Shown one piece after another: positions 22,815 to 29,828 of a stretch of 55,600 bases of DNA. A model generated the notes under the pieces. It was given only the letters and a program-made list of their open reading frames with translations. It did not search any database and was not told where the DNA came from. A program made the position numbers and the translations under genes. Origin of the DNA: Patescibacteria group bacterium (GTDB lineage: Bacteria > Patescibacteriota > WWE3 > UBA101185 > UBA10185); the NCBI GenBank assembly GCA_018825365.1, contig JAHJEV010000001.1:1-55600 (forward strand). The letters run 5' to 3'. Each line of letters begins with the position of its first letter. Within the stretch, counting starts at the first letter, position 1.

Positions 22815-22890
22815 TGGTGGACCGTAGCGGAATCGAACCGCTGATCTCTGCAATGCGAATGCAGCGCTCTACCAACTGAGCTAACGGCCC
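22815..22890 (-). tRNA. tRNA-Ala(CGC)
   Basis: GGGCCGT/ACGGTCC acceptor with G3.U70, TT-CGC-AT loop, CCA. Confidence 0.96.
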
Positions 22891-23710: not shown

Positions 23711-23798
23711 TGGCGGAGAAGGTGGGATTCGAACCCACGATACCTTGCGGTATGGCGGTTTAGTAAACCGCTACACTCGGCCACTATGCGACTTCTCC
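23711..23798 (-). tRNA. tRNA-Ser with ACT anticodon
   Basis: GGAGAAG/CTTCTCC-G-CCA acceptor, GCGGT-TTACTAA-ACCGC anticodon arm, ATACC-GCAA-GGTAT variable arm, GTGGG-TTCGAAT-CCCAC T-arm. Confidence 0.9.
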
Positions 23799-23818: not shown

Positions 23819-23907
23819 TGGCGGAGGGTACAGGATTTGAACCTGTGGACCGGTTTAACCCAGTCGCGGCTTAGCAAGCCGTTGCATTACCACTCTGCCA
23901 ACCCTCC
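23819..23907 (-). tRNA. tRNA-Ser(GCT)
   Basis: Cloverleaf, TT-GCT-AA loop, long variable arm, G73, CCA. Confidence 0.95.
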
Positions 23908-24191: not shown

Positions 24192-24220
24192 TTGACTTAT
24201 GTATTACAATGTAATACACT
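24192..24220 (+). promoter_or_regulatory. TA-operon promoter with overlapping palindromic operator
   Basis: TTGACT-17 nt-TACACT; perfect IR GTATTACA-A-TGTAATAC at 24201-24217. Confidence 0.75.
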
Positions 24221-24227
24221 GTTATAC

Positions 24228-24515
24228 GTGTGCGGTTATGAAATTCAAGTTGATAATTTAATTTGGAATGATTTCAATACCTCTCATATAGCAAAACATG
24301 GGGTTAAAATTTATGAAATTGAAGTGTTGCTAAAAGACAAAAGACTTAAGTTTCTATCTGCTAAGAACAATAGGTTCTTTGCTTTAGGTAAATCAGGAAA
24401 ACGACTTCTGGCCATGGTGATAACTAAAGAAAGAGGCGATAAATTTTACGTAGTCACCGCTCGAGACATGAGCAAATCAGAAAGGAGGTACTATAGAAAT
24501 GACAAAAATAAATAA
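24228..24515 (+). CDS. BrnT-like type II toxin
   Basis: IW...HIAKHGV...RFFALG...LLAMV...VVTARDMSKSERRYY; GTG start 7 nt after the -10 element. Confidence 0.8.
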   Translation: MCGYEIQVDNLIWNDFNTSHIAKHGVKIYEIEVLLKDKRLKFLSAKNNRFFALGKSGKRLLAMVITKERGDKFYVVTARDMSKSERRYYRNDKNK

Positions 24516-24774
24516 AATTCCAAAATTTAATACCATAAAGGAAGAAGCTGATTTTTGGGACAAACACAGCATCACAGACTATCTACCAGAGCTTGAGCCA
24601 TCAAAACTCTCATACAAAACAAAAGGTGAAAGAAAAGAAGTTGTAACAATCAGATTTTCACCTGCATTAAAAAAAGAACTCTCAAAAGTCGCGGACGAGT
24701 ACGATATATCACCCTCTTCTTTAGTTAGAATGTGGGTAGTAGGCAAACTACACGATGTAAGCAAAAGCGATTAA
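24499..24774 (+). CDS. CopG/BrnA-type antitoxin
   Basis: KIPKF...EEADFWDKH N-terminus and RHH-like VTIRF...LVRMWV C-terminus; overlaps the toxin stop. Confidence 0.82.
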   Translation: MTKINKIPKFNTIKEEADFWDKHSITDYLPELEPSKLSYKTKGERKEVVTIRFSPALKKELSKVADEYDISPSSLVRMWVVGKLHDVSKSD

Positions 24775-24783
24775 TGATGTTAA

Positions 24784-25162
24784 TGGTAGGGATGGCGGGA
24801 GTTGAACCCACGTTCCGAAGCCTTTTTTATACAGTTTCTACAAGTTTAACCGAACATTATCTTGGGAAAGCAGGTATCCGGTAAACCCTTTGTGCTTTCT
24901 GCAGGTTTTTCTTTGGAATTTCTCCCTTGGCGACTTGAGTTAACCAAACTCAAATGACCTCATCCTGGTTTTATTAGGCTAAGCCAAAAACTCTCCAGGA
25001 AGAATTTTTGTTGCCAGTTTCCGCTTTGTTAAGCGTTAACGTATGCCATTGCTGGCACAAATGCTTTTTTATCGGCATTTATATTTTTGCTGACTTTTAA
25101 GGTGTCTGCGAACCTACTTGCAACCATATAATAACTGCACCGGTCAAATCCAATGCATCCCC
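24784..25162 (-). ncRNA. ssrA: tmRNA
   Basis: 5' GGGGATGCATTGGATTTGAC; resume context ATAAATGCC; tag ORF ADKKAFVPAMAYVNA* (25076-25029); T-arm GTGGG-TTCAACT-CCCGC; ACCA end; adjacent to smpB. Confidence 0.92.
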
Positions 25163-25248
25163 ATGTAAAAGTACAACTCTATACGAAAGTGTAAGAGTGA
25201 TGAGATATTACTATAGAAATATTGATAAATCAACTTAGAACGACAGGG

Positions 25249-25731
25249 TTATTGAGTCCAAACGCTTCTTTTTATTTCCTTTGATTCCTTAGCCAAATCT
25301 ATTTTTATCTGTCTGTCCTTCGCTGTTTGTTTCTTTTCAAATTCTTTTTTGCCTTTTACAACTGCAAATTCAAGCTTAATCTTGCCATGCTGCATAACCA
25401 AAGCCGTAGGAACTGCGGTCTTACCCTTTTCCGATAGCTCTCTTGTTATATCCGCCACTTCCTTTTTGTTTAAAAGAAGCGGTCTTGATCTTTTTTCATC
25501 AAACTTTTCTGAAGTTTCAGACTGCTTGGAGTACCTACCTATATATAGACCAGTAACATGCAACACCCCGCTAATTAATTTTATATAGGAACCTTCAAAG
25601 TCTACTTTTCCTTCTCTTATGGCCTTTACCTCATATCCTTTTAACACAATACCGGCAGAATACCTCTCCAAAAGAGTGTGATTAAACATTGCTTTTCTAT
25701 TTTTTGCTAAAAGAAGTCCTTTTCCCTTCAT
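25249..25731 (-). CDS. smpB: SsrA-binding protein
   Basis: NRKAMFN, AGIVLKGYEVKAIREG, RPLLL, GKKEFEKK. Confidence 0.95.
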   Translation of the reverse strand: MKGKGLLLAKNRKAMFNHTLLERYSAGIVLKGYEVKAIREGKVDFEGSYIKLISGVLHVTGLYIGRYSKQSETSEKFDEKRSRPLLLNKKEVADITRELSEKGKTAVPTALVMQHGKIKLEFAVVKGKKEFEKKQTAKDRQIKIDLAKESKEIKRSVWTQ

Positions 25732-25775: not shown

Positions 25776-28700
25776 ATGAAACGCATTTTTAAGGTACTTT
25801 TTGTGTACTCAATATGTTTAGTTCTATCAGGTTTTATGAAAGAAACCTACGCTGAGTACATCCCCGGTACAAAATGCCCTAAAGCTCCGGATAAGTCGCT
25901 AGATTCCATTTGCGGAGTTGTAAAATCCGCTAAACCAACCCCGGTTGTCAAGGATGGGGTGGTAAGTTACGAAGCACCAAAAGGGATTCCTGGGGTGTCG
26001 GTTTACGTTTATGAATGTGATAATCAATCACCCTCGTGCAAACTAAATGGTGATTTGGTACGTCCTTTTTCTTCAACTTCAACAAACAAGGACGGGATGT
26101 TTTACTTGTGGGCAAGGAAACTGGACAACTACGAAGAAACTGGAGGTGGTCCGTCAACACAAAGAAATGTTATGTCTAAAAAACGATACCTTGTTTTTTC
26201 TTGCGGAAAAACCCTTGCAGGCATGCAGGAGATACCGTCCTATCTTGACCTTACATATGTAATTCAGGAAGTAGACTGCGGACCGATACAGGCTTATGTT
26301 GCTCCTAAAAATGTGATGTCCGTATTACCCAATGAAGATTCGATACCAAATCAATTATTGGCAAATCAAATGGGAACTGATGATATGGAAAAAGACTGTA
26401 CAGACATGCTTGCACGAGGCGATCTCGACAACTATGCGGTATTGTGCGACCCCATGAACAAGGATAAGTACAGGAACCACCTAACCGCACAATTCAGCTT
26501 TAAACCGGAGCAGTCTATACAAGCAAAAAACGGTCTTTTTCCGATAAGTAATTACACAACGCTTGTGTCAATGAATGTTGATTTGAAACTACAAAATGCG
26601 GACCCGAGGTTTATGCATGGGGATGCTGGAGGTTTTATGACTTTAGCAAACATTGCAGGTACGGGGAGCATGGAGATTTTTCCGGAAGGGCCCTTCTGGT
26701 CAAGAGATTGTATAATAAAATACCCTAACGATAAGGAATTTTGTATGACACCGGGAGCCCAGAACGTGGATGAGGCCACTGATCCAACAAGGAGTGGTCG
26801 AATCGCGGATTACACCAGTGATCTATACACAAATTCTGACTTTGTAATTCAAAACAAATTACCTAACATCCCACCAAAAAACAGCCTCAGGTTTTATAAA
26901 GAATTTCCTGCCAGGCAAGATATTATGGAGTTTATCCAAGACCCAACTGATCCTGCAAAGTTTTTAAGTCTGCAGTTCTCAAACTGCATCGGGAGTGTAT
27001 TTCTAAGAAAAGATAATGAAATCGCTAAAGATAAGTATGTTGCGTGTTCAAAGCTTCAAAAATGCAATGAGGTAGTCAGCAGGCAAAACAGCTACCTAAA
27101 TATCCAAACTACAGGTGGACCAGCCAAACTTTTGGCAAGTCCGAATACATTTCGCGACGAATACCTTGCGAATGTACCTATGGGCATAGAAGGTGCGCGG
27201 GTCTGCAAAATTAATCCGGAGAATGATGCTGAAGAAGCAATAAGAGTAGGTCAAATACAACCTCCTTGGGAGGATTTCGACCCGAGTGTTCATAAACTGG
27301 ATTCCTCTTATTGGAGTCCTGAGCTCATATATTACTTTGGAAAAAACAATGTGGCTGCTAAATACGGTTTTACATTTCAAAGCAACAACGATTCTTTTAT
27401 CGCAAGTGGTAGTCCTGTAAATGAAAAACCATTCACGGCGGGAGAAGAAGCCGCAAGCCAACCAGTGAGAGGAGGCTTTTTTGCAATGTATACTAGCGGA
27501 GGAAAGAGACCGAATAACACAATGGCGGGGGCTGTAGCCATATCAAGCAACAAGGTGACCAAAGATTCCTCGAATGCACTTACCAGTCTTTTGTCTCCCC
27601 CAACAAAAGATGGACTTTATGAGCTTAAGATTTTATCCGGTATTATTGTTCCTACCCTAGGCTCAAAAACAATGAGGGTAGGGGAGTTTTCAAAAGTAAA
27701 TGACTTTCCTGAAGAAATAACAATCGAGCCCGAAGACGACCAGGAAATAATAAGCAACAGGCTGTTCGGAGGTAACCTAGACCACCATCCTCTGATAGAC
27801 CAGGGCTGGGATATCAACGGCTTATTTAATGGGACCAGGACCCCAACTTCTGCAATTTACCTTACCGACCCGGCAATAAATAGGATAAAAGCGTTAGCGA
27901 CTCTTAATAAAAGTGCTTATGATATATACGACTCTTTTCTCTCAACAATATATGGAAAGGGTACCATAGATTTTAGTTTTAGTTCGTGGCCAGCGTTCAT
28001 CTCTGCTATTGTGTCAAGCGTTAACCCCAGCAAATCTTTTCTTGATAGGGTTAACGCCGATACAACACTACCACTAACAGGCGCGGAGGCGAGAAATGAT
28101 TTACAAACGGAATTTACGCTTTCGGAAGAAAATTTCACATCCAAATTTCCTTTACCAACACCGGATAATCTTGATGTAACAGCATGGGGAGGAAAAGGGG
28201 GAAACGTCGATTGCTATGAGTGGCATATAATACCAATTGCAATATACCCCATAGATATAGAAGAGGAAACATGTAATACCGATAAGACTGAGTCTCCCGA
28301 TGAGATTTCCAGAACCTGTCGAGTTGATATATGTAAAGCAACAAAAATTGATTGCACATGCGAAAGAGAGGCTCACAGTGGTATAACAACATTTATATTA
28401 ACGTGCAATAAACGTAACCCCTATGCCGGTTCAGACCCAACGGAGTGTTCAGTACCTGACAAACTCATCTGCGCCCAAAACCAATTCAGCTGCATAGGAG
28501 AAACTTCCGGGGGGAGTGGCGAAAAAAACTGCCTTTCGAATACTTATGGGGGTGAGATAGACGCAGCAGTGTCAAAAGCTTCCTGCGACGCGGATAAATT
28601 TGCAGGGAAGCCCTCAGAGACAACAATAGTTCCCTTCACAATTACCGTACCCAACGCCCCAGCCTGTATGGTATCAAGGGCGGGACCGTACACATGTGGG

Positions 28701-29828
28701 GGAACGTTAGAAAAAGACTCGGAGCTGGTTACAAAAACAGGTACTTTGCCCGACAATCCAAGAACTGTAGTACCTCCGCAAAATGCGGATTCCGTAGCAA
28801 TCGCAAACAATGAGTTAAGAAAGAGTTTCCAATCACCTTTTGAGGCAAGGTTTACATATGGACCCGCTGCCTTTGAAAGCGGGGACTCTTCAATTAGGAC
28901 CGTAGGTGATAACAACATTGCAAAAAGGAAAGGCACACTAGGTATCGGTGGAGACACTCAAAATGGAGCAATTACCAGAGGCATGTTCTCCGCCCCATTA
29001 CTGACAGAAGATCCTGTATACAATAAAGTAAATCTTCACTGCAGTATAGAAGATAACACCAACACCGGAGCATTTGTTTCCAATCTTCAAAGCGCAGAGC
29101 AGATGGGATCGTTCCAAACGGGTAATTGGGCGTGCATGGTAAATGACCCACCGATACCTGAGGTAGTGGATTTAAAGGAATATTTCACAAGATTCCCTGT
29201 CAAACCGGCATGTAAGTTTAATCCTTCAGATACCTGCGTATATGATGTTTTTTCGTTAGTGTTTGGTCCTAGTACACCGATACCAGAAGATGTTAAATTC
29301 TCCCCTGCATTTGTAAACATTTTGAATGCCGCTGCGTCAAGAATTAACATACCCGCATCTGTTTTGATGAGTCTTATTTCCGGGGTTGGGAAACAAACTA
29401 AATATGGTTACTACTTCACAACAGAGGGAGAAAAAGACTTAGAAGATGCAAGCTATCCTTGGTACGGGTCTTTTCCTGGGTGTGATGAAATGAATTCAGC
29501 CGCGGTGGGACCATACGATCTGATACTACAATGGTTCAACGGTGGGGTAAAAGTAATTAAAGGCCCCTTAGATGAGTTGGCTGTGGGAAGACACAAAACT
29601 GCCGCCAGATGTAACTTCTTGGACAGCACTTTTGTGACTGCGGCTATGTTAAAAAGCGTCGTAGGTGCTTCTAATTGTGAAAACTGGACATGGGAAGATG
29701 CACGACAGGCTTTATTGAAATTCGCTTGGGGATTCGAACTTCAGGGACAGCCTGAGGGAAACACACTATTTTCAGTTGACAATGACGAAAGAAACACTAA
29801 ACTGATATTCGAGCACTGCAAGTACTAA
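25776..29828 (+). CDS. Giant secreted Cys-rich protein (1350 aa) with a possible lysozyme/SLT-like C-terminal domain
   Basis: Signal-peptide-like N-terminus (…TYAE), many Cys; C-terminal AAA.RINIPASVL...AVGPY...RCNFLDS..VTAAML. Confidence 0.8.
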   Translation: MKRIFKVLFVYSICLVLSGFMKETYAEYIPGTKCPKAPDKSLDSICGVVKSAKPTPVVKDGVVSYEAPKGIPGVSVYVYECDNQSPSCKLNGDLVRPFSSTSTNKDGMFYLWARKLDNYEETGGGPSTQRNVMSKKRYLVFSCGKTLAGMQEIPSYLDLTYVIQEVDCGPIQAYVAPKNVMSVLPNEDSIPNQLLANQMGTDDMEKDCTDMLARGDLDNYAVLCDPMNKDKYRNHLTAQFSFKPEQSIQAKNGLFPISNYTTLVSMNVDLKLQNADPRFMHGDAGGFMTLANIAGTGSMEIFPEGPFWSRDCIIKYPNDKEFCMTPGAQNVDEATDPTRSGRIADYTSDLYTNSDFVIQNKLPNIPPKNSLRFYKEFPARQDIMEFIQDPTDPAKFLSLQFSNCIGSVFLRKDNEIAKDKYVACSKLQKCNEVVSRQNSYLNIQTTGGPAKLLASPNTFRDEYLANVPMGIEGARVCKINPENDAEEAIRVGQIQPPWEDFDPSVHKLDSSYWSPELIYYFGKNNVAAKYGFTFQSNNDSFIASGSPVNEKPFTAGEEAASQPVRGGFFAMYTSGGKRPNNTMAGAVAISSNKVTKDSSNALTSLLSPPTKDGLYELKILSGIIVPTLGSKTMRVGEFSKVNDFPEEITIEPEDDQEIISNRLFGGNLDHHPLIDQGWDINGLFNGTRTPTSAIYLTDPAINRIKALATLNKSAYDIYDSFLSTIYGKGTIDFSFSSWPAFISAIVSSVNPSKSFLDRVNADTTLPLTGAEARNDLQTEFTLSEENFTSKFPLPTPDNLDVTAWGGKGGNVDCYEWHIIPIAIYPIDIEEETCNTDKTESPDEISRTCRVDICKATKIDCTCEREAHSGITTFILTCNKRNPYAGSDPTECSVPDKLICAQNQFSCIGETSGGSGEKNCLSNTYGGEIDAAVSKASCDADKFAGKPSETTIVPFTITVPNAPACMVSRAGPYTCGGTLEKDSELVTKTGTLPDNPRTVVPPQNADSVAIANNELRKSFQSPFEARFTYGPAAFESGDSSIRTVGDNNIAKRKGTLGIGGDTQNGAITRGMFSAPLLTEDPVYNKVNLHCSIEDNTNTGAFVSNLQSAEQMGSFQTGNWACMVNDPPIPEVVDLKEYFTRFPVKPACKFNPSDTCVYDVFSLVFGPSTPIPEDVKFSPAFVNILNAAASRINIPASVLMSLISGVGKQTKYGYYFTTEGEKDLEDASYPWYGSFPGCDEMNSAAVGPYDLILQWFNGGVKVIKGPLDELAVGRHKTAARCNFLDSTFVTAAMLKSVVGASNCENWTWEDARQALLKFAWGFELQGQPEGNTLFSVDNDERNTKLIFEHCKY

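Follow-up and report, generated by a model that had tools for sequence, protein, structure and literature searches.

The 55,600-nt stretch of DNA analysed here (the window) comes from a small-genome groundwater bacterium, whose genome assembly (G000) comprises 732,238 bases in 4 contigs at a completeness of 95%. A search with the Rfam tmRNA model (RF00023, gathering score 47 bits) revealed a full-length ssrA gene at 24784-25162 on the minus strand, matching the model from position 1 to 374 of 374 (98.4 bits, E = 2.9e-37), and this is the sole tmRNA above the cut-off genome-wide. The gene spans 379 nt with the CCA encoded, and the Rfam alignment contains the parts expected of a tRNA-like domain: an acceptor stem of 7 bp, a T-arm (GUGGG UUCAACU CCCGC, 24795-24811, minus strand), a single discriminator base and the CCA end. 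The tag reading frame and the smpB gene, both described as intact in an earlier reading made from the letters alone (henceforth the sequence-only reading), are indeed so. The open tag frame (25029-25076, minus strand) starts with a GCC resume codon at 25076, encodes ADKKAFVPAMAYVNA and ends with a TAA stop codon at 25031-25029, and smpB (25249-25731, minus strand) lies directly upstream of ssrA, encoding a 160-residue product that matches Pfam PF01668 (SmpB) at 130.9 bits over profile positions 2-142 of 143.

Immediately 3′ of ssrA, and not part of the tmRNA, lies a gene pair encoding a BrnT-like toxin and a CopG-like antitoxin (24192-24774, plus strand; PF04365, 43 bits; PF12441, 40.5 bits). 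The pair sits between ssrA and two tandem tRNA-Ser genes, in a spot that is variable across the genus. One of these tRNA-Ser genes has the anticodon ACT, with an A at the wobble position (23711-23798, minus strand), and the other has GCT (23819-23907); the same ACT/GCT pair occurs in the closest relative (G013). Adjoining smpB is an ORF of 1350 aa (25776-29828, plus strand) with no Pfam match at E-values up to 0.01. ARAGORN called six tRNAs in the window, and the tmRNA at 24784-25162 was not among its calls. Outside the window, on contig C3 of the same genome (121165-121242, plus strand), the program called a tRNA with the anticodon TTA ('tRNA-Stop') and without an encoded CCA.

The third base pair of the alanine acceptor stem, G3.U70, is the textbook case of an acceptor-stem identity code. 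In the window tmRNA, the 5′ strand of the stem reads G1 G2 G3 G4 A5 U6 G7 (25156-25162, minus strand, G1 being 25162) and the 3′ strand reads C66 A67 U68 C69 C70 C71 U72 (24788-24794, minus strand, C70 being 24790 and U72 24788), followed by the discriminator A73 (24787) and the CCA end (24786-24784; together 24784-24787, minus strand). The Rfam alignment (5′ GGGGAUG / 3′ CAUCCCU) and direct reading of the sequence give the pairs G1.U72, G2-C71, G3-C70, G4-C69, A5-U68, U6-A67 and G7-C66, so that the sequence-only reading of the stem, A73 and CCA was exact. Compared with canonical tmRNA, C70 takes the place of the universal U70, and U72 that of C72. The bacterial alanine identity set is given as A73, G2-C71, G3.U70 and G4-C69 (PMC9976931); A73, G2-C71 and G4-C69 are present in the window tmRNA, whereas G3.U70 is absent and the 1:72 pair is G.U. 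The bacterial serine acceptor end, given in the same source as G1-C72, G2-C71 and G73 (PMC9976931), differs from the window tmRNA at G1.U72 and A73.

The tRNA-Ala genes of the same organism follow the rule. As the sequence-only reading had remarked, a tRNA-Ala with G3.U70 lies in the window: tRNA-Ala(CGC) (22815-22890, minus strand) has G1-C72, G2-C71, G3.U70 and A73 (GGGCCGU/ACGGUCC-A). The window genome carries three tRNA-Ala genes ending in GGGCCGU/ACGGUCC-A-CCA, and this end is identical in all 35 tRNA-Ala genes read from 18 genomes of the window's own genus (g1), its sister genera (g2 and g3) and another genus of the same family (g63). Thus, the rule holds for tRNA-Ala, and the departure concerns the tmRNA only.

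We considered whether the variant end reflects an assembly error or a mobile element that integrated into ssrA and swapped its 3′ end in this strain only. Integration into ssrA is known (PMC4383910), the sequence just past the CCA is different in every member of the genus, and the toxin-antitoxin pair lies at the site just past ssrA in the window genome. Against this stands an independent DNA sequencing run (X4), in which a single contig spans 24700-25300 with 0 differences inside ssrA; its 10 differences all fall at 25225-25270, outside the gene. The sequence-only reading had allowed that reads might give CATCTCCACCA instead, and X4 matches the assembly throughout ssrA. A displaced duplicate of the ssrA 3′ end, the mark of a genomic island in this gene, is lacking: besides the gene itself, no copy was found in the window (3 mismatches in 23 nt) or in the genome (2 mismatches in 16 nt). 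Moreover, the variant occurs in 14 assemblies of three genera and in a public sequence record (L254, see below). The artefact and integration reading is refuted by this conservation across the clade, by run X4 and by the duplicate searches. With it falls the suggestion in the sequence-only reading that the 3′ end was damaged by integration, against which the RNA contigs described next speak as well.

Metatranscriptome contigs from two runs of one study (X7 and X12) cover 24784-25162 only, with a depth of zero in the flanks, whereas DNA run X4 covers the flanks of ssrA evenly. In run X12, an adapter-like loose end begins right at 25162, which would fit a mature RNA whose 5′ end is G1. This evidence takes the form of assembled contigs, and DNA may occur in RNA libraries, yet the sharp contig boundaries at ssrA point to RNA rather than to contaminating DNA. 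We conclude that the tmRNA is genuine and transcribed.

How widespread is the variant? We read tmRNA ends throughout the GTDB family (a tmRNA match in 76 of its 86 genomes) and the class (a match in 114 of 134), giving 117 tmRNA or tmRNA-like sequences in all. Aligning ssrA from relatives, a check proposed by the sequence-only reading, revealed U72, C71 and C70 in all 14 tmRNAs of three genera: 12 of 12 in g1, one in g2 (G014) and one in g3 (G015). The variant is therefore not private to the assembly, an outcome that reading had named as refuting, and because both changes recur in every relative within the genus, chance is not at issue. The G015 tmRNA starts with AGGGAUG and keeps U72, and this compensatory A1-U72 closing pair confirms the pairing of positions 1 and 72. 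All 14 tmRNAs encode the CCA, and their position 73 is A in five and G in nine, with G73 in 9 of the 12 from g1. A truncated public record (L254) has the same acceptor end and is identical to the tmRNA of G012 at 229 of 242 positions.

A different departure from G3.U70 was found in genus g63, where two tmRNAs (L353 of G090 and L101 of G089) end in GGAGAUG/CAUCUCC-G-CCA, that is, with A3-U70 and G73. In these genomes, the tRNA-Ser genes share pairs one to four of the stem and G73 with the g63 tmRNA (G1-C72, G2-C71, A3-U70, G73), and among the tmRNAs only those of g63 carry the complete serine acceptor end; the window tmRNA differs from it in G1.U72, G3-C70 and A73. The g63 end is a second, independent loss of G3.U70 and perhaps the clearer candidate for a serine-charged tmRNA. 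The tag peptide of the g63 tmRNA is AEDNDFAYAGVAVPAYASVAA.

The other 101 of the 117 class sequences are canonical, counting those of G080 and G095, which are cut by contig ends and were judged by eye. Beyond the class, we sampled 151 genomes of the phylum, of which 139 had a match, 131 of them new; among these 131, the 29 with the highest and the 40 with the lowest scores were read, and all 69 have G1-C72, G2-C71, G3.U70 and A73. Class and phylum together thus yield 170 canonical tmRNAs, every one with G3.U70 and A73. In a tmRNA tree built with the acceptor columns removed, g1 and g2 are nested in a group of 28 with 97% support that also holds G015, g63 and 12 canonical tmRNAs. Within the phylum sample, both departures from G.U are confined to this one sub-group of the family, a distribution that fits a predisposing change there. 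A separate family of the survey (f8; L375-L379 and L044) gave only tmRNA-like matches of about 135 nt, which read GGGGUAG ... CUACUCCA and then mostly CCT rather than CCA; most are followed by a similar downstream stretch, agc[ag]atccgg. By their sequence, these may be two-piece or reduced tmRNAs.

A GTDB-wide pattern scan for CATCCCT-R-CCA matched at least 120 stretches. Among the matches listed, at least 107 lie inside tRNA genes called by ARAGORN (Gln, 53; Leu, 25; Ile, 9; Trp, 7; Glu, 7; Arg, 5; Val, 1), and 14 lie outside such calls; an Rfam tmRNA was found in none of the 14, one of which is the truncated tmRNA L254. The same acceptor sequence thus serves tRNAs of several identities and is not diagnostic of one amino acid.

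The window tmRNA resembles canonical SsrA (RF00023) with its SmpB partner in its full model match, 7-bp stem, T-arm, encoded CCA, GCC resume codon, tag ending in Ala before the stop, adjacent smpB and expression, and it differs from canonical SsrA in a third pair that is G-C instead of G.U and a closing pair that is G.U instead of G-C. One review calls the tmRNA G-U 'completely conserved' (PMC3985003), and Hudson et al. report that only one Carsonella lineage departs from a G:C closing pair in its tmRNA (PMC4131195). In that lineage (Carsonella ruddii HC/HT), U72 comes with a compensating A1, as in G015, and is forced by an overlap with the tRNA-Phe gene; no loss of G3.U70 is described for it (PMC4131195). 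By contrast, no gene overlaps the 3′ end of the window tmRNA (the nearest ORF ends at 24774), and C70 accompanies U72. As for databases, the sole check mentioned in the passages searched of a 2025 tmRNA database paper is for acceptor stems with two or more mismatches (PMC11915505). We found no description of a natural tmRNA lacking G3.U70 in the literature searched, while the supplements of that database may list such variants (PMC11915505). The tmRNA without G3.U70 is apparently a new exception to a feature listed as universal. As to function, alanine may be nonessential on tmRNA, as stated in a review that cites an in vitro switch of E. coli tmRNA to histidine instead of alanine (Nameki et al. 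1999, as cited in PMC3985003), which indicates that trans-translation is not strictly alanine-dependent. That switch was made in vitro with an engineered acceptor end, whereas the window variant is natural and conserved in its clade.

Trans-translation requires a charged tmRNA. The tag frame is open, with a similar peptide, in all 24 tmRNAs compared (e.g. AEKAFVPAMAYVNA and ADQKAFKPAMAAVFA; ADKEAFVGVPAMAAVAA in canonical relatives), and a SmpB ORF adjoins ssrA at 49 of 52 related loci, among them those of g1, g2, G015 and G090. With these features and the RNA contigs, the variant tmRNA looks functional. Since everything else that trans-translation needs is conserved and a charged tmRNA is required, we infer that something still charges it. 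We know of no natural tmRNA that is charged with anything but alanine, which counts against a different amino acid here.

We favor, with a probability of roughly 0.4, the reading that the variant tmRNA is charged by another synthetase that reads shape, with seryl-tRNA synthetase (SerRS) as the best candidate, so that this tmRNA would naturally carry an amino acid other than alanine, with serine the foremost candidate. SerRS is singled out because the connector helix takes the direction in tmRNA that the long variable arm takes in tRNA-Ser. Recognition by E. coli SerRS is reported to depend on tertiary shape rather than on particular nucleotides, and G1.U72 is given in the same source as an antideterminant for E. 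coli AlaRS, shown in C. elegans mitochondrial tRNA-Ala (PMC9976931). In the proposed scenario, the amino-acid identity set of tmRNA would have been rewired in one small lineage, with loss of the G3.U70 read by AlaRS and gain of G1.U72. Charging would have passed, wholly or in part, to a synthetase that is independent of the anticodon and reads overall shape instead of acceptor bases, in which case the tag would start with a residue other than alanine. A tmRNA decodes nothing, so a changed amino acid costs no fidelity; once a second enzyme could charge the tmRNA, the switch would be nearly neutral, and positions 1:72, 3:70 and 73 may have become free to drift. The discriminator is consistent with this scenario. 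It is G in 11 of the 16 tmRNAs without G3.U70, through about three changes inside g1 and one in g63, compared with A73 in all 170 canonical tmRNAs, a pattern not expected if AlaRS still read the acceptor end. An AlaRS substrate without its main determinant would be expected to retain A73, and G73 thus favors another synthetase. The tRNA-Ser-like end of the g63 tmRNA leans the same way.

Several observations count against such a switch. Bacterial tRNA-Ser keeps G1-C72 (PMC9976931), whereas the window tmRNA has G1.U72; it also has A73 and not the G73 of tRNA-Ser. Its acceptor sequence is, moreover, shared elsewhere by tRNAs with a range of identities. We found no extra synthetase gene tracking the variant clade, the search returning one AlaRS and one class-Ic enzyme, and the AlaRS of exactly g1 and g2 is unusual beside a G3.U70-reading residue, as an adapted AlaRS would be.

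Two other synthetases were tried as chargers and dropped. G1:U72 and A73 are tRNA-His marks in Caulobacter (PMC3064791). The window genome has two full-length hisS-class genes, both outside the window (contig C3, 134445-135698, minus strand; contig C4, 21577-22878, plus strand), which score 386 and 352 bits against an equivalog cut-off of 286.75. In the genus, 12 of 14 genomes have a hisS match, the two without one being incomplete, and two copies occur in the window genome only, with one in each of the other 11; on this ground, the second HisRS was abandoned as a dedicated charging enzyme. The tRNA-His of the window genome is ordinary, with an encoded G-1 and C73. Caulobacter HisRS also needs the anticodon. 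The second case, GlnRS, was suggested by the tRNA-Gln-like acceptor end and set aside, as the window genome has a single class-Ic enzyme (PF00749), taken as GluRS, and hence probably no GlnRS. To our knowledge, anticodon-independent charging by such an enzyme has no precedent.

The other leading explanation is that AlaRS still charges the tmRNA with alanine, having co-evolved to accept G3-C70 with U72 while still reading G3.U70 on tRNA-Ala; we regard this as possible but rather unlikely. The window genome encodes one AlaRS, a protein of 607 aa without the C-Ala domain (G000 contig C3, 435616-437436, minus strand, outside the window; L103/L104). In the E. coli enzyme, Asp400 bonds the 2-amino group of G3, and Asn303 repels G3:C70, such that the N303A mutant is active on G3:C70 tRNA-Ala (PMC6055181). 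The sequence-only reading had proposed inspecting the AlaRS residues that read G3.U70, and the outcome was mixed: one change lies beside the Asn303 equivalent, and another, at Asp400, is unlinked to the variant. The Asp400 position is Gln (YQSNGYP) in the window AlaRS and in almost every one of the family's 65 AlaRS, and Gln also occupies it in 7 of the 11 class families examined (this family plus 6 of the 10 others), with canonical tmRNAs; we therefore dropped it as a cause. Bacterial AlaRS are said to contain a Tyr-(Asp/Glu) peptide without exception (PMC6451123). By contrast, a 2-residue insert right before the Asn303 equivalent is found in all 14 AlaRS of g1 and g2 (GDQKCIAPSN vs MDG--VxPSN) and in none of 61 others, and Lys replaces this Asn in G015, the remaining lineage with C70/U72. 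Yet the Asn is also replaced beside canonical tmRNAs in G051 (Ser) and G036 (Lys), so that one of three substituted lineages has the variant, and the g63 AlaRS has no change in this region. The link between these AlaRS changes and the tmRNA variant is thus suggestive but weak.

Further points on AlaRS fall on both sides. The g1 and g2 enzymes differ, fixed throughout the clade, at 30 sites where 51 other members of the family show at least 90% conservation, and in AlaRS trees they sit on a long branch with G077 and other families, apart from the remaining 50 of their own family. AlaRS may have evolved fast or been replaced in this lineage. However, 27 of the 30 changes lie in residues 1-250, outside the tRNA-recognition domain. 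Precedents for relaxed recognition come from mitochondria. Human mitochondrial tRNA-Ala, likewise without G3.U70 (A1-U72, A2-U71, G3-C70, G5.U68), is charged independently of G3-U70 by a diverged AlaRS (PMC6451123), and the C. elegans mitochondrial tRNA-Ala has G1.U72, with U72 as here, which the diverged mitochondrial AlaRS accepts (PMC9976931). In mitochondria, a single AlaRS serves the variant tRNA only, whereas here one AlaRS would need two recognition modes, as all 35 tRNA-Ala genes keep G3.U70 and A73. Such an enzyme would also risk mischarging, given that many tRNAs of the genome (Val, Ile, Leu, Tyr and Phe) have G3-C70 with A73, and the G73 of 9 of the 14 variant tmRNAs removes a further alanine determinant. 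Taken together, the sequence data lean slightly toward an altered charging route over relaxed AlaRS recognition.

Alternatively, the tmRNA may no longer be aminoacylated, either decaying or being kept for another purpose such as SmpB binding or regulation. The major alanine determinant is lost in 14 of 14 and A73 in 9 of 14, the clade is variable at positions 1 and 73, and the Rfam scores of 83-104 bits compare with mostly 105-145 in relatives. Nonetheless, we consider this improbable: the tag frame shows amino-acid conservation over three genera, the 7-bp stem is fully paired, including the compensatory A1-U72, all 14 genes encode CCA beside an intact smpB, the RNA is present in RNA libraries, and the gene is retained by genomes of 0.5-0.9 Mb. 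Still more remote is the idea that C70 is edited or modified from C to U in the RNA, restoring G3.U70 after transcription, to which we assign very little probability. Editing would reconcile the gene with the G3.U70 rule, direct support being nil. The RNA runs list no G>A at 24790, a site 6 nt from the 3′ end in data that omit differences near contig ends, and editing would leave U72, G73 and the A3-U70 variant unexplained. We know of no C-to-U editing in a bacterial acceptor stem.

The variant also bears on annotation. Among class tmRNA loci, ARAGORN called 4 of 16 tmRNAs without G3.U70 compared with 80 of 102 others, and annotation that relies on ARAGORN only may wrongly score variant genomes as lacking tmRNA. 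For the biology, a conserved and expressed natural exception provides a direct test of whether trans-translation needs alanine, and also of how AlaRS or another synthetase recognises a substrate without the G.U pair. If the tmRNA does carry an amino acid other than alanine, it would be the first case of a tmRNA changing its identity in nature, with the tRNA-Ser type end of genus g63 as a second and clearer case, and alanine on tmRNA would be a frozen habit rather than a requirement.
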